From NCBI GenBank assembly GCA_023424355.1, contig JAFAEA010000236.1:1-38781 (forward strand): a stretch of 38,781 bases of DNA. The letters are read 5' to 3'. Below, piece by piece: positions 7,111 through 27,798 of this stretch. The position numbers and the translations under genes are program-made. The DNA is from Chloroflexota bacterium. GTDB taxonomy: Bacteria; Chloroflexota; Chloroflexia; Thermomicrobiales; UBA6265. The notes below the pieces were generated by a model. The model did no database searches, was not told the DNA's origin, and worked only from the letters and a program-made list of their open reading frames with translations. How positions within the stretch are numbered: position 1 is the stretch's first letter; each line of letters starts with the position of its first letter.

Positions 7111-7149
7111 TGACAAGGTTGAGACCGTTCGCGAGGATTTGATCCCCGG

Positions 7150-7222
7150 AGCACCTGGAGAGATTCGAACTCCCAACCGTCGGTTTACAAAACCACTGCT
7201 CTACCGTTAGAGCTACAGGTGC
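7150..7222 (-). tRNA. tRNA-Thr (anticodon UGU)
   Basis: Hand-folded reverse complement: acceptor GCACCTG/CAGGTGC, U8, D-arm GCTC/GAGC, anticodon loop TTTGTAA, T-arm GGGAG-TTCGAAT-CTCTC, discriminator T. CCA is not fully encoded. Confidence 0.8.
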
Positions 7223-7277
7223 CAAGCTGCGTAGGTCAGACACCCTGCAGAGGCGGTGTACACGTCCTCCCTACGCA

Positions 7278-7351
7278 TGGAGCGACAGGCGAGAATCGAA
7301 CTCGCATCCACAGCTTGGAAGGCTGGCATTGGGCCATTCAACTACTGTCGC
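7278..7351 (-). tRNA. tRNA-Gly (anticodon UCC)
   Basis: Reverse complement GCGACAG TA GTTG..CAAT G CCAGC CTTCCAA GCTGT GGAT GCGAG TTCGATT CTCGC CTGTCGC T CCA. Anticodon arm and T-arm closely resemble my recollection of bacterial glyT-type tRNA. CCA is encoded. Confidence 0.85.
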
Positions 7352-7363
7352 ATGAACGATCCG

Positions 7364-7433
7364 AACCGGCGACGGGATTCGAACCCGCAACCCCCTTCCA
7401 AAAGTCGGTGCTCTGCCGTTGAGCTACGCCGGG
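7364..7433 (-). tRNA. tRNA-like element with aberrant anticodon arm (possible pseudo-tRNA or attP-associated tRNA copy)
   Basis: Good 6-bp acceptor (CCGGCG/CGCCGG, with a C1:U72 mismatch), D-arm GCTC-AACGGCA-GAGC and T-arm GCGGG-TTCGAAT-CCCGT. Only 21 nt (ACCGACTTTTGGAAGGGGGTT) separate the D and T stems, and no 5-bp anticodon stem can be drawn. The best loop readings are UUG or UGG. Confidence 0.5.
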
Positions 7434-7721: not shown

Positions 7722-7802
7722 ATACACGCGACTACACGCGCATGCACGCGCATGCGTGAATATCAATTCACGCGCGGAATTCACGCACCGCCTGATTCAC
7801 GC
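7722..7802. repeat. array of CACGC-core repeats (candidate integrase/excisionase arm-type or regulator binding sites)
   Basis: NCACGCG occurs at 7724-7730, 7734-7740 and 7744-7750, at exact 10-bp phasing. An inverted GCGTG lies at 7754-7758. ATTCACGC occurs at 7766-7773, 7779-7786 and 7795-7802, with a further ATTCACGC at 7582-7589. Confidence 0.5.
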
Positions 7803-8932
7803 ATGAGGATCTCTTCCATCGCGTTTGCTGCAGGGCGCTGCATATCGACATCTACATGCGAGTACACATCGGCTGTGGTGGCCAGGCTGGTGTGTCCAAG
7901 GATGCTGGAGACGACTTTGATATTGATTCCTGATCGCAGCATGGCCGTGGCTGCCGTATGCCGGAGATCATGTAGTCGGCAATGTGGCACGTCAGCGAGA
8001 TCACACACGTTCTTATGCCATCGTGCGATGCTCGATTGTGGAAGCAGCAAACCGTTACCTCGATCGAACACAAGATCCGTTGAGACCCATTCTTCCGATC
8101 GCAGCCGGCGCTCATTCTGATCGACCTTCAGAAGCCGAAGTGCCTTGATCGCGATCTCGGGTATGGCGATAGTGCGAGTGCGACTGGTTTTGGTTGTGAC
8201 TCCAACGTGCTGACGAAAGTTCTCATCACGGGTGATGGTTCGTTGGCATGAGATTGTTCCCGCCGAGAGATCCACATCTGCCCACATGAGAGCGCGCATT
8301 TCGCCAGGTCTCAATCCCGTTGAGAGTGCCAGCGTATAGAAGGCGTTGAGCGTAGTATCACCTCGCACTACCTTCATCACGGCATTGATGTGTGATTCTG
8401 ACCACACCATACGCCCAGAACGTCGAAGAGTTGGCGTCATAGTACCTAGCACTGGATTCGAGTTGATCACGCCGAGTGCGATGATCTCCTTCATGGTTCC
8501 GTGCAGAATGATTCGCGAGTTGCGAACAGACGACGAACTGTATCGAGAGGCGAGATTGTCTATCCATCGCTGAACATCGTGCGGTGTGAGTTCCACGACT
8601 TTGCGTTTTCCGAGATGAGGGTAGAGGCGTGTCTCGGCAACCTGCTCATAGCTGGCGTAAGTATTGCTCGACCAGCGACGTTTCCCGCGCTCCAGATATT
8701 CGATCACTGCCTCTTTCACCGTCATCTGGGACGCTGGCGAATATCGTCCGGAACGCTTCAGGCGACCCACAGTGCGTAGATGGTCTTCCGCGTCCTCGAT
8801 GGTTCCGAAGGTCTTGGATCGCCATTTCGTGCCTTCCTGCCATCGCGCCTGATACCGAATCTCGCCCTCACTGGTTTGCCGCTCGGTGACAAAACCGTCG
8901 CCTCGCCTTACCTCGTGTTTTCGCCTTGCCAT
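7781..8932 (-). CDS. int: tyrosine recombinase / phage integrase
   Basis: 383 aa. Catalytic signature TGLRPGEMRAL ... CRLHDLRHTAATAML ... LGHTSLATTADVYSHV (R..HxxR..H..Y). Adjacent to the tRNA genes. Confidence 0.9.
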   Translation of the reverse strand: MARRKHEVRRGDGFVTERQTSEGEIRYQARWQEGTKWRSKTFGTIEDAEDHLRTVGRLKRSGRYSPASQMTVKEAVIEYLERGKRRWSSNTYASYEQVAETRLYPHLGKRKVVELTPHDVQRWIDNLASRYSSSSVRNSRIILHGTMKEIIALGVINSNPVLGTMTPTLRRSGRMVWSESHINAVMKVVRGDTTLNAFYTLALSTGLRPGEMRALMWADVDLSAGTISCQRTITRDENFRQHVGVTTKTSRTRTIAIPEIAIKALRLLKVDQNERRLRSEEWVSTDLVFDRGNGLLLPQSSIARWHKNVCDLADVPHCRLHDLRHTAATAMLRSGINIKVVSSILGHTSLATTADVYSHVDVDMQRPAANAMEEILMRESGGA

Positions 8933-22923: not shown

Positions 22924-22968
22924 CATGCCTGACGTTAATGGCGTCAATTTGTATCAGGGGCTTGTATA

Positions 22969-23388
22969 GTGGCCCGTCGGGGCGCTACGCAAACTGAACA
23001 AGCTGCTCGTGAAGAGCGGTTGCGCAGTGTTGCCCGTGAACTCTTGGCAGAACCTCATCTTAAGCAGGTTGACCTTGCAGAGCGCCACGGTGTCACGCAG
23101 CAGCAAATCAGCCTCGATATCAAACTCATCAACAAGAGATACCAGGACGCAGCGCGCAAAGATACGACCGAGCGCATCGGCAAGCAGCTGCAGATGTACG
23201 ATGCCATTCGCGAGGCGCACATGCCGTTTGCGCTCCAGGGCAAGACGCGTAATGCCGAGATTGTGATGCAAGCGAACGCTGGTGAAGCAAAGCTGCTTGG
23301 CATGGATCGGCCTGTGAAGCAAGAAATCGCACTGGATGGCGGTGTGCGTGTGGAAATCATCGGCATGGCCGAAGAGGATCTGCCGTAG
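22969..23388 (+). CDS. terS: terminase small subunit (HTH-containing)
   Basis: 139 aa with a GTG start. HTH-like LKQVDLAERHGVTQQQISLDI. It lies immediately upstream of the large terminase gene. Confidence 0.7.
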   Translation: MARRGATQTEQAAREERLRSVARELLAEPHLKQVDLAERHGVTQQQISLDIKLINKRYQDAARKDTTERIGKQLQMYDAIREAHMPFALQGKTRNAEIVMQANAGEAKLLGMDRPVKQEIALDGGVRVEIIGMAEEDLP

Positions 23389-25629
23389 ATGCTTGCAACC
23401 GCTTCGCCACATCCACGAGCCACGATCCGCTATCAGCCGGTGGGATCTGCAAAGGATCTCATTGCTGCTCGCGATCTCGAGGTGCTGGCGGTCGGCCCGG
23501 CCGGCACAGGCAAGACGCTCGCTGCCTGCTGGAAGATTCACCTGGCGTGCCTGCGATATCCCGGCATTCGCGTGCTGATGGTGCGTAAGACGCTGGAATC
23601 GCTCAAGAGCGGTGCGCTCAACACGTTCATCAACGGTGTGCAACCGATCCGGTTCGGCGTCGAGACGTTTGGCGGCAACAAGTTCTTTCCCGCGGAGTTC
23701 CGATATCCCAACGGCAGCGTGATTCTCGTATCCGGCATGGATAAGGCGGAGAAGATCTTGTCCGCCGAGTTCGACATCATCTACGTCAACGAGATCACCG
23801 AGCCAGGCTTCATGGAATCTGATCTTGAGGTACTGCTCACCCGATTGCGCAACGGCAAGATGCCATATCAGCAGATCATCGCAGACGGCAACCCGAGTGG
23901 ACCGCGCCATTGGATGAACCGACGCTGCAACGAAGGTAAGACCCGGCGCATCACATCGACCCATAAAGACAATCCTGTGTACTGGGATGCCAAGAAGAAT
24001 GATTGGACCGACGTTGGCAGGCAGTACGTGCAAACGGTGCTTGCTGGCCTGACCGGTGTGCAGCGCAAACGCTTGTTCGAGGGCGTGTGGGCAGCCTCCG
24101 AAGGTCTGGTGTACTCCGAGTTCAATCCCGATGTGCACATCAAGTCGATACCACCCGAAGAGCTTGCCACCTGGAAGCGCGTCGTGCTCGGTGAAGACGT
24201 GGGTAGCACGAACCCGACCGTGATTCTGGTTGGGCACCAGCGCGGCGATGGCTACCTGCACATCAGTCACGAGATGTATCGCCGCGGCATGAGCAGCTCG
24301 GATATCACCGACGCCACCGTAGAGTTCTGGAAGCAGCACAAGCCTGACAAGCTCGTCATTGACCCGAGCGCCAAGGGGTACATCACCGATCTTCGACGCC
24401 AGGGCATTTACGTGGAAGCGGCACAGAATGACATTCTCGTTGGTGTCCAACGTGTGCATGGTCAGTTACAGGCTGGCTTCAGTATCGACCCGGCGTGCAC
24501 GAACACGATCGATGAGTTTGGCATGTATGCGTACCCCGACAACCCCAAGGTAGATACCGACAAGCCGATCAAGGAGAACGATCACTGCCTGATTGCCGGG
24601 ACTATGGTGACCACCATCAGCGGGGACAAGGCTATTGAGGCAGTTCAGAATGGCGAACTTGTGCTGACACGTGACGGATATCGGGAGGTTGTGTCCGCTG
24701 GTATGACGAATCCATCCGCCGAAGTGATGACCGTGCACTTGTCAAACGGGAAGTCGATAACTGGTACTGCGGGGCACCCTGTGTTTGCCAATGGGCAATG
24801 GGTCCTAATGGATGAACTGCGATACGGTGATATACTTATGGAGACAAGAGAGGTGTCTTCATGCGAGTTGAAATCATCGTCTATCGCGGTATCAAGTTCC
24901 GACGGTATCCAGATTCAGATCGGCTGTCAGACCAGCGATACTACCGGCCGCATGCCGGGCTCATTCGTAACGGCGTTCAAGCATTGCATCGAGAAATTTG
25001 GAAAGACCACAACGGACCAATCCCGGAAGGGCATCATATCCACCACATTGACGGGAACCCCGACAACAATGCTGTTGAGAATCTTGCATGCGTTCCGGCA
25101 GGTGACCATCTCAGCCATCACGGCAGCCAGCCATCGTCTGAACGAAAGCTGGCGCACTTGGAATCCATCCGCGACGCTGCTGCTGAATGGCATGGATCTG
25201 AGGCCGGTATTGAGTGGCACCGTGAACACGGTAGGCGTTCATGGGCAAAACGGCAGCCAGAGACAAGAACGTGCGAACAGTGCGGATGCGAGTTCGACGA
25301 TATTGCGCGGCGCTCTCGGTTCTGTTCAAACAAATGCAAGTCGGCATGGCGTAGAGCCAGCGGTGTCGATGATGAAGACCGAACCTGTGAGAACTGTGGG
25401 GCATCTTTCCGAACCGACAAATACAGCAAGACACGCACATGCACTCGTGCATGTGCTGGGCGTCTCCAAAGTCGCACAAAGGCAAGCAGTCTATAACCTG
25501 ACAGTAGCCGGTACGCCTGAATTTTTTGCGAACGGGGTGCTCGTCCACAACTGTATGGACGCGCTCCGGTACCTGGTGATGGGCATTACGGAACCGACGA
25601 TCGATCTCAAGAACTTCTTTGGCGTTTAG
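23389..25629 (+). CDS. terL: terminase large subunit, interrupted by an intein
   Basis: Walker A VGPAGTGKT, Walker B FDIIYVNEI. The nuclease-domain motif KENDH / CMDALRYL is split by a 322-aa Hint element. The exteins are 23389-24585 and 25552-25629. Confidence 0.9.
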   Translation: MLATASPHPRATIRYQPVGSAKDLIAARDLEVLAVGPAGTGKTLAACWKIHLACLRYPGIRVLMVRKTLESLKSGALNTFINGVQPIRFGVETFGGNKFFPAEFRYPNGSVILVSGMDKAEKILSAEFDIIYVNEITEPGFMESDLEVLLTRLRNGKMPYQQIIADGNPSGPRHWMNRRCNEGKTRRITSTHKDNPVYWDAKKNDWTDVGRQYVQTVLAGLTGVQRKRLFEGVWAASEGLVYSEFNPDVHIKSIPPEELATWKRVVLGEDVGSTNPTVILVGHQRGDGYLHISHEMYRRGMSSSDITDATVEFWKQHKPDKLVIDPSAKGYITDLRRQGIYVEAAQNDILVGVQRVHGQLQAGFSIDPACTNTIDEFGMYAYPDNPKVDTDKPIKENDHCLIAGTMVTTISGDKAIEAVQNGELVLTRDGYREVVSAGMTNPSAEVMTVHLSNGKSITGTAGHPVFANGQWVLMDELRYGDILMETREVSSCELKSSSIAVSSSDGIQIQIGCQTSDTTGRMPGSFVTAFKHCIEKFGKTTTDQSRKGIISTTLTGTPTTMLLRILHAFRQVTISAITAASHRLNESWRTWNPSATLLLNGMDLRPVLSGTVNTVGVHGQNGSQRQERANSADASSTILRGALGSVQTNASRHGVEPAVSMMKTEPVRTVGHLSEPTNTARHAHALVHVLGVSKVAQRQAVYNLTVAGTPEFFANGVLVHNCMDALRYLVMGITEPTIDLKNFFGV
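24586..25551 (+). mobile_element. intein within TerL (Hint domain split by about 213 aa)
   Basis: Block A CLIAGTMV directly after ENDH. Block B ITGTAGHPVF. Blocks F/G VYNLTVAGTPEFFANGVLVHN followed by +1 Cys (CMDALRY). Confidence 0.8.
24861..25496 (+). CDS. HNH homing endonuclease encoded out of frame inside the intein
   Basis: 211 aa in a different + strand frame from terL. GAGAGG lies 8 nt upstream of the ATG, and an in-frame TGA at 24828-24830 blocks any upstream extension. HNH motif HREIW...GHHIHHIDGNPDNNAVENL. Two C-terminal CxxC...CxxxC zinc modules. The TAA lies inside the Y-N codons of intein block F. Confidence 0.8.
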   Translation: MRVEIIVYRGIKFRRYPDSDRLSDQRYYRPHAGLIRNGVQALHREIWKDHNGPIPEGHHIHHIDGNPDNNAVENLACVPAGDHLSHHGSQPSSERKLAHLESIRDAAAEWHGSEAGIEWHREHGRRSWAKRQPETRTCEQCGCEFDDIARRSRFCSNKCKSAWRRASGVDDEDRTCENCGASFRTDKYSKTRTCTRACAGRLQSRTKASSL

Positions 25630-25644
25630 GCGGGAGCGGGACAC

Positions 25645-27798
25645 ATGAGCAACTGGCTACAGGATATTGGCAGGTTTATTCGCGGTGAAACAGGCTACGA
25701 CGATCGCGCGATGCCGCACCAGCTCGACATTCGAGAGGCGGCTGGCGATCAGATCATCAAGTGGAACACAGGCCGGCCGCAATGGCTGGAAAAGAACGTC
25801 CACCATCTCGACAAGCATGCCTATCGACGTGTGAGCCTCATCTTTGCGTGCATCCAGTACCTGTCGAACTCATCGGCTGTTGCGCCATTGAAGCTCATGC
25901 GCACGCTCAGCAACGATCAGGAAGAAGAAGCGCCAGACCACGACCTTACGCGATTGCTCCAGCGACCGAATGAAGGCCAGGGAGGTGGACGCTTCATTTC
26001 GTTCTGGACGCTCATGGCCGTGCTGACTGGCTTTGGCATTGTCGAGAAAGAGCGCGATCAGTATGGCCGTGTGATCGGCCTGTGGGTACTGCGCTCTGAC
26101 TGGCTGCGGCCGATCCCGCGATCTGCTGGCATCACCGATTGGGAGTACGCCGTGCCAGGGCATGATCGCCCGTTCATCATCGAGGCCGAAGACACCATCC
26201 CGCTTTCGTATGCCGACGTGATGACCGGCGACCCGACCGGTATTGGTCCAGTGGAGGTGATCTTCCAGGAAGCGCAGATCCTCAACGAGCTTGACGATTA
26301 CATCAAGGAGTTCCTCGACAACAAGGCGATGCCGCAGTACTTCGCTATTCCGGATACCGATGGCCCGTTGGCAGCGCAGTGGGGCGATCCTGATACCGTT
26401 GACGCGTTCCGAGAGAAGTTCAACCAAACCTATGGCGGCCTGCGACGCACGAGCAGCGTCATGGTCTCGCCAGCGATCAAAGATCTGAAGCAAATGGGCT
26501 TCAACATGAACGAGCTGGCGTATCGCGACCTGCGCGCCGTGAACGAGGCCAGCATCACCACCGCCTTCGGTATTCCGCCGATCCTGCTGAACACGCTATC
26601 GGGCCTCGAGCACGCCACGTACTCGAACTACGGGCAGGCGCGGCGAGCGTTCTACGAAGACAAGATGGTGCCGTGGTGGAGCAGGATCGATGATGCGCTC
26701 ACACGCCACTTGCTGCCAGAGTTCGAAACCGACAGTGCATACAATCTCGTATTCGATCTCTCCGAGGTGCCGGCGCTTCGAGACGATGAGAGCGCGACAC
26801 ACGATCGAGCAGTAAGCGCCTTCACATCGGCGCTGGTGAGCCGCCACGCCGCCCAGCGCATGGCAGGCATCAAGCCACACGGGCCCGATGTGTTCATGGT
26901 GCCGTTTAGCTCGATACAACAGCCAGTGAACTCACTGCCAAAGGCAAGCGCCACGATCTCCCAGCTCGATGACGACGCTCGAGCACTTCCGGCGCCGAGA
27001 TTCATTCGCCGCGATGGCCGCCTTTACATCAACGAGGCCACAGAAACGCCGCAGGAGCGTGCATCGGCACAACAGTTCATCCAGCATCAACGAGAGCTTA
27101 TGGGACGCCTGGGCGGCTTGCTCGAGCCACGCGCTGAAGCGTTCCTGCGTGCCCAGGGTGCGCGAATGATCGAAGAAGCGACGAACGAGCGCTCGGCAGA
27201 GACGTTCGAGGTTAGAGCGATCGATCAATACGACTGGTTCGCCGATGACGATGAGTTGATGAGCATCATGCGGCAATGGTGGGCACAGGTTACCGAATCG
27301 GCGTTCGGATCGGTATCGCAATCCCTTGGCGTTGATTTCGCGTTTGGCGGCAGTAATCCGTTCCTTGGCGAGATCGAAGGGATGCTTGGACACCGTATCC
27401 GCGGCATCAACGAAACCACCCGCGACATGGTGGAGACAATCGTACGCGAGCAGCTGCAGCAAGGCACCAGCATTCCGGACCTGAAGGAAGCGCTCGAGGA
27501 GTGGATCGAGCCGACCTACAAGAACCGCGCTCAGGCGATAGCACGCACCGAGAGCCAAGTCGCGTTGAACACCGCCACCGAGAAGGCGTACGCAGCCACA
27601 GGGCAGGTGAGCCATGTGCGCATGTTCGATAACCCGCTGTGTGACGGTAAGGCCGGAAGCGATGGCCTCACGTGCCCGCAACGCAACGGATTGGTGGTGC
27701 CCCTGGCTCAAATCCAGGAACACATCAATGGTGAGCATCCTAATGGGACTCTCGCATATGCCGCTGTGCTCGATCCGATCGAGGGGGTGGACTGGTGA
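25645..27798 (+). CDS. portal protein fused to a MuF/SPP1-gp7-like head-morphogenesis domain
   Basis: 717 aa immediately after terL. The C-terminal roughly 250 aa contain NRAQAIARTESQVALNTATEKAY, the ARTE-type motif of Mu F-like proteins. The N-terminal roughly 430 aa have portal size and position. Confidence 0.75.
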   Translation: MSNWLQDIGRFIRGETGYDDRAMPHQLDIREAAGDQIIKWNTGRPQWLEKNVHHLDKHAYRRVSLIFACIQYLSNSSAVAPLKLMRTLSNDQEEEAPDHDLTRLLQRPNEGQGGGRFISFWTLMAVLTGFGIVEKERDQYGRVIGLWVLRSDWLRPIPRSAGITDWEYAVPGHDRPFIIEAEDTIPLSYADVMTGDPTGIGPVEVIFQEAQILNELDDYIKEFLDNKAMPQYFAIPDTDGPLAAQWGDPDTVDAFREKFNQTYGGLRRTSSVMVSPAIKDLKQMGFNMNELAYRDLRAVNEASITTAFGIPPILLNTLSGLEHATYSNYGQARRAFYEDKMVPWWSRIDDALTRHLLPEFETDSAYNLVFDLSEVPALRDDESATHDRAVSAFTSALVSRHAAQRMAGIKPHGPDVFMVPFSSIQQPVNSLPKASATISQLDDDARALPAPRFIRRDGRLYINEATETPQERASAQQFIQHQRELMGRLGGLLEPRAEAFLRAQGARMIEEATNERSAETFEVRAIDQYDWFADDDELMSIMRQWWAQVTESAFGSVSQSLGVDFAFGGSNPFLGEIEGMLGHRIRGINETTRDMVETIVREQLQQGTSIPDLKEALEEWIEPTYKNRAQAIARTESQVALNTATEKAYAATGQVSHVRMFDNPLCDGKAGSDGLTCPQRNGLVVPLAQIQEHINGEHPNGTLAYAAVLDPIEGVDW

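Follow-up and report, generated by a model that had tools for sequence, protein, structure and literature searches.

Organization of the terL locus

A gene for the large subunit of a phage terminase (terL) was found in a stretch of 38,781 nucleotides from a Chloroflexota bacterium (assembly GCA_023424355.1, contig JAFAEA010000236.1, positions 1 to 38,781; this whole stretch is referred to as the window). The gene contains the coding sequence of an intein, and an open reading frame (ORF) for an HNH endonuclease lies inside the intein on the same strand in a different frame. The features of this region are as follows, with the source of each assignment (SD, Shine-Dalgarno; HMM, hidden Markov model; pLDDT, predicted local distance difference test score).

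23389..25629, + strand: terL precursor ORF, 746 aa (N-extein, intein, C-extein and stop codon); ORF list and Pfam
23389..24585, + strand: terL N-extein, 399 aa, with the ATPase domain and most of the RNase H-like nuclease domain; Pfam
24586..25551, + strand: class-1 intein, 966 nt, 322 aa; Cys1 start 'CLIAGTMVTT...' and end '...FFANGVLVHN'
24586..24852, + strand: Hint-N half of the intein, residues 1-89, with Cys1 (24586-24588) and block B TGTAGHP; PT-HINT, Hint_2 and Intein_splicing
24828..24830, + strand: TGA closing the HNH frame, 10 codons 5' of its ATG; read from the sequence
24848..24855, + strand: SD-like GAGAGGTG, 5 nt before the HNH ATG and within the last Hint-N codons; read from the sequence
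24853..25431, + strand: linker, i.e. the HNH DNA read in the terL frame, intein residues 90-282, Ser/Thr-rich and predicted to be disordered; pLDDT <50
24861..25496, + strand: HNH endonuclease ORF, ATG plus 211 codons plus TAA, offset +2 relative to terL; Pfam HNH_3
24981..25121, + strand: predicted catalytic beta-beta-alpha-metal core of the HNH protein, residues 41-87, HHIHHIDGNPDNNAVENL...H83...H87; Pfam match 41-82
25272..25337, + strand: zinc ribbon 1 of the HNH protein, C138, C141 ... C155, C159, 'RFCSNKC', FCS-like; invariant Cys
25386..25454, + strand: zinc ribbon 2 of the HNH protein, C176, C179 ... C194, C198; invariant Cys
25432..25551, + strand: Hint-C part of the intein, blocks F and G, ...QAVYNLTVAGTPEFFANGVLVHN; Hint-C HMM match
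25494..25496, + strand: HNH stop codon TAA, formed from the terL codons TAT and AAC (Tyr303-Asn304, block F 'VYNLTV'); read from the sequence
25552..25629, + strand: terL C-extein CMDALRYLVMGITEPTIDLKNFFGV and stop codon; from the sequence, the intein-less allele having GMDALRY... here

The terL product matched Terminase_3 (2e-11) and Terminase_6N of Pfam, both in its N-terminal part, as well as Intein_splicing (47 bits against a cut-off of 35.8); PT-HINT and Hint_2 matched too. The N-extein is colinear with an intein-less allele (protein P0121 of locus L122), to which it is 85% identical at the nucleotide level and 93% at the amino acid level. The intein is inserted late in the nuclease domain, 25 codons short of the 3' end of terL. 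It has the N-terminal Cys nucleophile, the TxxH of block B, blocks F and G, the terminal HN (...VYNLTVAGTPEFFANGVLVHN followed by C) and the +1 Cys (25552-25554) that characterize a class-1 intein, and an HMM of Hint-N built from 89 relatives matched its N-terminal half. The terL frame is open throughout 23389-25629; terL of the window itself is therefore not split.

In the AlphaFold model of the intein, the Hint halves (residues 1-89 and 283-323) mostly have pLDDT values of about 90, with lower values at their edges: Hint-N scores about 90-93 at residues 1-80 and drops to 77 at 81-89, and Hint-C scores 67 at residues 281-290 and about 89-91 farther on. Residues 90-282, which make up the linker, are below 50. 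No Pfam or PHROG domain was found in this linker, which contains 11.8% Thr and 11.4% Ser and is poorly conserved in the family.

The HNH ORF is in 'frame 3' relative to terL ((24861-23389) mod 3 = 2). Its product matched HNH_3 (PF13392; 58.6 bits against a cut-off of 24.8, E 4.7e-16) and PHROG 15471 'HNH endonuclease' (1.5e-43); the other PHROG matches were annotated plainly as 'HNH endonuclease', except for one 'intron-like DNA endonuclease'. Residues H61, H62, N70, N74 and H83 are invariant in the HNH homologues, and H87 is invariant in one alignment (A1) and conserved in at least 90% of the sequences of another (A3). Both zinc modules have the pattern CxxC...CxxxC, with Cys residues invariant across 22-50 homologues, and the profile of zinc ribbon 1 matched the FCS zinc finger 2l8e (E 0.009). 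The AlphaFold model of the HNH protein has a mean pLDDT of 94.6 and places strands at residues 58-62 and 75-79 and a helix at 80-89. The nearest solved relative is I-HmuI (PDB 1u3e), with a weak sequence match confined to the core (E 0.012). In a Foldseek search of the model against the PDB, I-HmuI was the top hit at a weak E of 0.1 (probability 0.57, TM about 0.2), and the remaining hits were zinc-finger noise.

An earlier note, made from the sequence alone, had listed terL, the intein, the HNH ORF with its SD, ATG and upstream stop, the zinc modules and a TAA inside block F, and all of these were found at the positions it gave. Its description of the HNH gene as nested out of frame within the intein agrees with the +2 offset and the absence of stops from the terL frame over 212 codons. 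The low-information character that it ascribed to the terL-frame stretch was likewise confirmed by the Ser/Thr-rich composition, the lack of a domain and the pLDDT below 50.

Distribution of the nested arrangement

A word-indexed protein search gave more than 379 homologues of the HNH protein, mostly of about 200-230 aa, and the best 120 of them cover at least 91% of its length. An exhaustive HMMER search for the family gave 1,196 representative clusters (50% identity) at E<=1e-30. We surveyed 121 further loci from three NCBI genomes, annotated phage records, 80 viral contigs and 34 genome contigs, which together with the window make 122 loci. At 93 of the 122, the HNH gene is nested in a terL intein and a long ORF spans the whole HNH gene. 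The host frame is the +1 frame of HNH, as in the window, at 91 of these 93 nested loci. The host frame of the other two (L084 and L121) is HNH +2; both belong to a short subclade of about 170 aa with a single zinc ribbon, and their frame may reflect either independent nesting or a pair of indels.

The organization of the nested loci is uniform. Hint-N lies immediately 5' of the HNH gene, and block F/G ('VYNLTV..EFFANGVLVHN' followed by C) lies immediately 3' of it. Cys1 is present in 90 of 90 relatives' inteins with a complete N-terminus, the intein ends in xN in 92 of 92 (HN in 68), and the +1 residue is C, S or T in 92 of 92. These inteins have a median length of 320 aa. The HNH stop of family members precedes the intein end by 31-79 nt (median 55), and about 25-33 codons separate the intein site from the terL 3' end. 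The GC content of the nested loci spans 29-66%, and their host TerL proteins were assigned to Terminase_6N (42), Terminase_3 (32) and the T7-type (3). These proteins share just 10-32% identity with the window extein, and the insertion site is homologous. Loci of the HNH family were found in Actinomycetota, Chloroflexota, Bacillota, Bacteroidota, Pseudomonadota, Myxococcota, Verrucomicrobiota, Acidobacteriota and bacteria of the candidate phyla radiation (CPR). The nested element was also observed in a metagenome-assembled genome (MAG) labelled Nitrosotalea sp., an archaeon (L120, host ORF of 1,458 aa), and in the CPR contigs L111 and L121; these cases may represent wrong binning or a very wide range of the element.

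Loci L001-L003 are prophages of Streptomyces xanthochromogenes, Rhodococcus zopfii and Corynebacterium sp. A21. Their recorded gene calls give the HNH gene and a small C-terminal fragment and leave the terL body uncalled; in L001, an unrelated antisense ORF was called in its place.

Three cultured phages, Tetrasphaera phage TJE1, Clostridioides difficile phage phiCDHM19 and Acinetobacter phage Highwayman, have the same +2 offset inside one annotated terL coding sequence. Since the layout occurs in cultured phages, an assembly artefact can be excluded as its cause, and the arrangement is compatible with viability. An artefact would consist of a canonical in-frame HNH intein with two compensating indels, near 24850 and 25496, and two frame changes at these domain borders would indeed restore an ordinary architecture. 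Copies that carry indels or errors do exist. In P0378/L125, on a 1.2-kb metagenomic JGI contig, Hint-N is in frame with HNH through a single frame shift and Hint-C is still in another frame, and P0245 (265 aa, ENA) is a mosaic of the terL and HNH frames of a close intein relative, with repeated changes between the two; each is either a decaying copy or the result of sequencing errors. Against an artefact, isolates, MAGs, viromes and the finished genomes of cultured phages contributed 91 independent loci with the same +2 offset. In the window, a stop lies in the HNH frame 10 codons before the ATG, and the ORF has an SD of its own.

A survey for in-frame HNH versions had been suggested in the earlier note. 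No HNH fully in frame with the intein was found among the 122 loci, the 120 best word-indexed hits or the 150 best HMMER representatives (172-395 aa), which again argues against the two-indel explanation, and we consider the probability of that explanation negligible. Several longer proteins were examined as in-frame candidates and rejected. The extra length of P0042 and P0079 is due to C-terminal zinc ribbons, in P0264, P0293, P0324 and P0350 an HNH-like module is duplicated at the N-terminus, and P0260, P0269 and P0365 have spurious N-terminal extensions.

Openness of the terL frame and constraint on the two frames

Across the 212 codons of the HNH ORF, the terL frame contains 0 stops and the third frame contains 15. 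The chance of such openness, the calculation of which had been proposed in the earlier note, depended on the null model. The probability that the terL frame is open was 0.134 under permutation of synonymous codons inside the HNH ORF, 0.123 when HNH was recoded with phage codon usage, and 0.0015 with uniform synonymous codons; the normal off-frame stop density of this genome also gave about 0.0015. In 12 real genes of the window, the equivalent +1 frame contained 4.3-10.9 stops per 212 codons, and 0 of 3,089 sliding 212-codon segments of these genes were open in that frame. The window HNH sequence is unusually poor in off-frame stops. The openness at this single locus is weakly improbable under the strictest null and is not decisive.

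At the family level, 91 of the 93 nested loci are stop-free in the host frame, compared with 12.0 expected under synonymous permutation (sum of log10 P = -132). After clustering at 60% identity, 80 of 82 were stop-free compared with 10.7 expected (sum of log10 P = -120). The mean number of stops in the terL-equivalent frame of HNH copies that are not nested was 7.4 for split and 5.5 for free-standing copies (both described below). The family-wide excess of stop-free host frames is decisive evidence for more than chance. In the free-standing members, the +1 frame has about one third of the stops of the +2 frame (5.5 versus 17.3), and this low stop load may explain the near-constant frame relation of nesting.

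The two readings of the same nucleotides were then compared among relatives. The HNH frame showed 37% mean pairwise identity with 25 columns conserved in at least 90% of the sequences, including the His/Asn/His residues and all eight zinc-ligand Cys residues, which points to selection on the HNH frame at the amino acid level. The terL frame over the HNH DNA showed 20.5% mean pairwise identity and 2 conserved columns. Based on this low conservation and the predicted disorder of the linker, selection on the terL frame over the HNH DNA is essentially against stop codons. The last two Cys codons of zinc ribbon 2 (C194 and C198) overlap the first Hint-C strand (intein residues 285-290), and only over about 20 codons at this 3' end do both frames truly encode structured protein. 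The earlier note had claimed that selection acts on both frames. The claim holds at the level of the family, in which 91 of 93 open frames stand against 12 expected; it cannot be drawn from the window alone (P about 0.13), and on the terL side it comes down to the avoidance of stops.

Predicted expression of the HNH ORF

The HNH start codon is ATG at 79 of 92 family loci. SD matches of at least 5 nt were found at 46% of the family HNH starts, compared with 6% of control start-like codons, and the window start has an SD match of 6-8 nt. A stop in the HNH frame lies a median of 10 codons before the start across the family. No slippery heptamer was found between the upstream TGA and the HNH ATG of the window, and no promoter or terminator site was found in a scan of positions 24400-25800. 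Given the enrichment of SD and ATG and the lack of slippery, promoter-like or terminator-like sites, the HNH protein would most likely be made by internal initiation on the terL mRNA.

Alternatively, Hint-N could be fused to HNH within the precursor by a programmed frameshift near 24831-24860. The HNH start is just a few codons past Hint-N, and L125 encodes such a fusion. This route is nevertheless most improbable: besides the absence of a slippery heptamer from the upstream stop to the ATG, most loci have the upstream stop, and the family is enriched in ATG starts preceded by SD-like motifs. A second shift, back to the first frame, would also have to occur before block F, and truly free-standing homologues share the same N-terminus.

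Split and free-standing states of the HNH family

Two other states were observed among the 122 loci. At 15 loci (L020, L026, L027, L030, L034, L039, L041, L049, L050, L056, L060, L086, L098, L105 and L107), Hint-N and Hint-C flank the HNH gene, but terL is not one continuous frame. Its N-terminal ORF stops 1-42 codons after Hint-N (at most 15 codons in 14 of the 15), and an Int-C ORF of about 70-130 aa starts inside the 3' end of HNH. By their gene layout, these 15 loci are HNH-type 'fractured' terminase genes.

The HNH gene is free-standing, with no Hint domain nearby, at 14 loci, and for most of these the flanking ORF that was examined is an intein-less terL. Free-standing copies include L006 (Pseudomonas phage PAE1), L124 (Lactobacillus phage CL2), L021, L035, L038, L063, L087, L100, L113 and L123 (Acinetobacter phage BP10). 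Most of the free-standing copies are located directly 3' of terL, and before the portal gene where the downstream ORF was identified; in L022 and BP10 the HNH copy is upstream of terS. A free-standing copy 3' of terL lies about 100 nt from the intein site used in other phages. In L035, a gene of the ADP-ribosyltransferase exoenzyme family (2324-2959, E 7e-24) is present just 3' of the free-standing HNH gene, between terL and the remaining head module.

The nested, split and free-standing states are interspersed in a rough neighbor-joining tree of the HNH proteins, which has no support values; on it, Fitch parsimony gives at least 16 changes of state.

Evidence for mobility of the intein and HNH gene

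The closest homologues of the window TerL minus its intein are 93, 84, 81 and 76% identical, 418-426 aa long and intein-less, and the element is present in scattered TerL relatives only. Comparison with the empty allele L122 demonstrated an exact insertion: the window reads ...AACGATCAC, the 966 nt of the intein and TGT..., and L122 reads ...AACGATCAC followed directly by GGT..., so that Gly (GGT) is encoded where the window has the +1 Cys. The sequence of L122 at the empty site is AAGGAGAACGATCAC followed by GGTATGGACGCT. In addition, two mini-intein derivatives that lack most or all of the HNH DNA were found, P0241, whose Hint parts are 85% identical to those of the window and which lies in a different terL, and P0178. 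The search with the terL-frame intein used a word prefilter, and its 13 hits are suited to finding derivatives and not to counting them. Empty, full and decayed alleles thus coexist, as the homing cycle predicts. The suggestion of the earlier note that the intein and the HNH gene form a composite mobile element gains support from the exact insertion, the empty and HNH-deleted alleles and the sporadic spread.

Inteins at other positions were also observed. The TerL homologue P0184 (718 aa) has a different intein after 'EYDIIF' in the ATPase domain and none at the nuclease-domain site, and two further surveyed TerL N-exteins hold LAGLIDADG-type inteins.

We regard it as highly probable, for both the architecture and the mobile-element nature, that the window terL carries a composite homing element in the terminase gene of a temperate-type tailed phage. 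Protein splicing of the window precursor is expected from the intact motifs, the essential role of terL and the viable cultured phages with the same layout. Ribosomes on terL would read through the HNH DNA without meeting a stop, so that about 193 disordered residues would link the Hint halves; these halves would fold and splice out the whole 322-aa intein to give a 424-aa TerL. Other ribosomes would start at the internal SD and ATG (24848-24863) of the same late mRNA and produce the 211-aa HNH enzyme. Where the cell also contains a related phage or prophage with an intein-less terL, this enzyme would nick or cut that allele, and repair from the occupied allele would copy the intein and HNH gene into the empty site. 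For the window copy, we infer splicing, internal initiation, cleavage specificity and present-day homing.

The window copy might instead be a relic, that is, a mini-intein with a long junk linker whose HNH gene is unexpressed or inactive and open only because the invasion was recent. The theory of the homing cycle expects the endonuclease to decay after fixation, decayed relatives are known (the HNH-deleted P0178 and P0241 and the mosaic P0245), and the single-locus probability for openness of the terL frame is only about 0.13. We consider a relic unlikely. The ORF is full-length and keeps every invariant catalytic and zinc residue, its product is modelled at a pLDDT of 94.6, the ATG and the SD match of 6-8 nt are retained, and the HNH frame has been conserved over the long term (35-60% identity), which would be unexpected for an unexpressed relic.

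Several points weigh against a composite homing element. An SD-like sequence is missing at about 30% of the family HNH starts, and no conserved nucleotide homing target could be extracted across the family: at the insertion site of 90 loci, none was found beyond an Asp codon at -5 to -3 and the +1 TGC. The surveyed loci share a phylogeny, and their combined P overstates independence. Among the structural predictions, the modelled fold resembles that of I-HmuI weakly, and the predicted disorder of the linker depends on a 13-sequence alignment. Production of the HNH enzyme, cutting of terL and splicing of the precursor are deduced from sequence. Finally, every examined member of the family is located in or beside terminase genes, whether nested, split, 3' of terL or upstream of terS.

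The last point would suit an accessory role of the HNH protein in DNA packaging, as in the HNH-terminase type of HK97-like cos phages, in place of homing. That HNH genes beside terminase genes can be required for cos cleavage is well established (as reportedly described by Kala et al. 2014; see also PMC3592412). The evidence makes a packaging role quite improbable for the window protein. It matches HNH_3 and PHROG 'HNH endonuclease', its nearest solved relative is the homing endonuclease I-HmuI, and of the HNH families it matches only HNH_3 (PF13392) and not the HK97 gp74-type PF01844. The closest TerL relatives have no HNH gene and are presumably functional; no HNH_3 hit was recorded among the genes called in 8.2 kb around L122, the closest relative. 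Mini-intein derivatives have lost HNH cleanly and kept terL intact. Furthermore, the same module occurs in TerL families that are 10-32% identical, in the intein slot that is a classical homing position, and the location of free-standing copies about 100 nt from the intein site would be typical of free-standing homing endonucleases. A composite homing element accordingly remains the preferred explanation of the window locus.

Other features of the window

The portal gene (25645-27798, + strand, 717 aa) is located directly downstream of terL. Its product matched Phage_portal (2e-52) fused to Phage_Mu_F (1e-5; Mu F-like head morphogenesis), and the same fusion was found in the relative L021. A 139-aa ORF without a Pfam hit (22969-23388, + strand) ends exactly at the terL start, and its position suggests that it encodes the small terminase subunit; in L122, the gene at the equivalent place matched Terminase_2. 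Two antisense ORFs without domain evidence lie opposite terL, at 22954-24459 (- strand, 501 aa) and 25111-25644 (- strand, 177 aa). A GC composition of 57% most likely gave rise to them, and long open frames are evidently no rarity on the strand opposite terL.

Three tandem tRNA genes (7148-7433, - strand) are located beside a tyrosine integrase gene (7781-8932, - strand). They are Thr-TGT, Gly-TCC and a third with an odd anticodon loop, to which ARAGORN gave no assignment. The tRNA and integrase genes suggest either an att region or a temperate phage or prophage that carries tRNA genes of its own. An Rfam scan at gathering thresholds detected no intron or other RNA family in the terL region and only the three tRNAs elsewhere; a group I or II intron is therefore unsupported as an explanation of the locus. 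In a blastn search of the terL region against 50,697 phage records, no close relative was found, with just a 7% match to terL of Streptomyces phage Dagobah.

Comparison with known systems

The arrangement had been thought undescribed in the earlier note. This does not stand, because out-of-frame endonucleases in inteins were reported in 2025-26, of the endonuclease VII-like type in terL and of the LAGLIDADG type in dnaX. Gosselin, Arsenault & Gogarten (bioRxiv 10.1101/2025.01.02.630785) described an endonuclease VII-like homing endonuclease (HEN) 'in frame 3' of actinophage inteins, many of them in terL, and proposed invasion by a free-standing HEN. The window resembles their architecture D in that a same-strand, +2-frame nuclease ORF is located between the splicing blocks, the host is terL and the host frame is open. 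In addition, a host-frame linker without recognizable structure (pLDDT <50 in the window) contrasts with a HEN frame that folds (94.6). The nucleases differ: their HEN is Endonuclease_7-like and about 130-180 aa, whereas that of the window is of the HNH_3/zinc-ribbon type. Membership of the window HNH protein in the endonuclease VII-like family was rejected, since blastp against the frame-3 ORF of Keitabear gave an E of 1.7. The intein of Keitabear, translated from the supplement of the same preprint, is different and shorter (265 aa versus 322 aa). A tblastn search with the window HNH protein gave no match to the phages of that report. Their group was reported from actinophages only, whereas the window HNH family spans many phyla.

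LAGLIDADG endonucleases in the +2 frame of cyanobacterial dnaX inteins were described by Phillips, DeSimone & Gogarten (bioRxiv 10.64898/2026.09.14.751524) and, as cited there, +2-frame LAGLIDADG in dnaX inteins by Gorbalenya 1998. Common to dnaX and the window are an out-of-frame HEN in a contiguous intein, purifying selection on the nuclease frame with relaxed constraint on the host frame, a sporadic distribution, and the coexistence of mini-intein and empty alleles. Unlike the LAGLIDADG nuclease in a cellular replication gene, the window has an HNH nuclease in phage terL.

Dassa et al. 2009 (PMC2677866) reported split inteins whose two halves flank a free-standing endonuclease gene, together with a model of intein invasion by a free-standing homing endonuclease gene (HEG). 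As in their fractured genes, an endonuclease of the free-standing type occupies the endonuclease position of the window intein, and its 3' end overlaps the downstream intein part. Their invasion model fits the window, and the 15 split HNH relatives have exactly their layout, in terL. In contrast to the fractured genes, the terL frame of the window is uninterrupted, and one precursor with cis-splicing is expected. The endonucleases of Dassa et al. are GIY-YIG and Vsr-like, and HNH was there merely predicted to be capable of this.

A 'hidden' out-of-frame HNH insertion in mycobacteriophage DNA methylases, ShiLan, was reported by Arsenault, Gosselin & Gogarten 2025 (PMC11855218). ShiLan also has an out-of-frame HNH in a phage gene with a stop-free host frame and the stop codon in the last bases of the insertion. 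Unlike the window element, it has no splicing domains, so that the read-through peptide stays in the host protein, and it has a GTG start and no detectable ribosome-binding site. The window HNH protein further resembles I-HmuI, which is intron-encoded in phage SPO1, and in-frame HNH inteins in that a beta-beta-alpha-metal core, which is predicted for the window protein, is combined with modular DNA-binding extensions. It differs from the in-frame HNH inteins, in which the nuclease is translated as part of the intein, and from I-HmuI, which is encoded in an intron and has no zinc ribbons.

No paper was found in the searchable literature that ties the terL of TJE1, phiCDHM19 or phiCD119 to an intein or an out-of-frame HNH. 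The architecture itself is already described, and the window adds a different nuclease family to it. The family-level picture, that is, its breadth and its three states, appears to be unreported in the searchable literature.

Implications

The nested arrangement has a practical consequence for annotation. Gene callers give either the long terL or the HNH gene and not both, and terL was uncalled in the three NCBI prophage loci examined. Where terL is left uncalled, intact prophages could seem to have no terminase. For protein engineering, the window intein is a natural case of a Hint domain that is predicted to tolerate an insert of about 190 disordered residues.

The locus is a gene within a gene: the protein-splicing domain and the HEG of the free-standing type, both of them selfish modules, occupy the same DNA in different frames. 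Because cultured phages hold different states (nested in TJE1, phiCDHM19 and Highwayman; free-standing in PAE1, CL2 and BP10), the origins of intein endonucleases and of split inteins are experimentally approachable.

We tentatively propose, as a reading with a little less than even support, that the HNH_3/zinc-ribbon lineage is a cross-phylum, terminase-specific mobile module that has repeatedly switched between the free-standing, split and nested states, and that the nested state, the commonest and stably kept, is a selected and durable solution and not a transitional accident. If this is true, nesting might uncouple the dosage of the endonuclease from that of TerL, or only the frame with the fewest off-frame stops might be invadable. 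The family would then provide living intermediates for an origin of full and split inteins in which splicing came first and was followed by endonuclease invasion.

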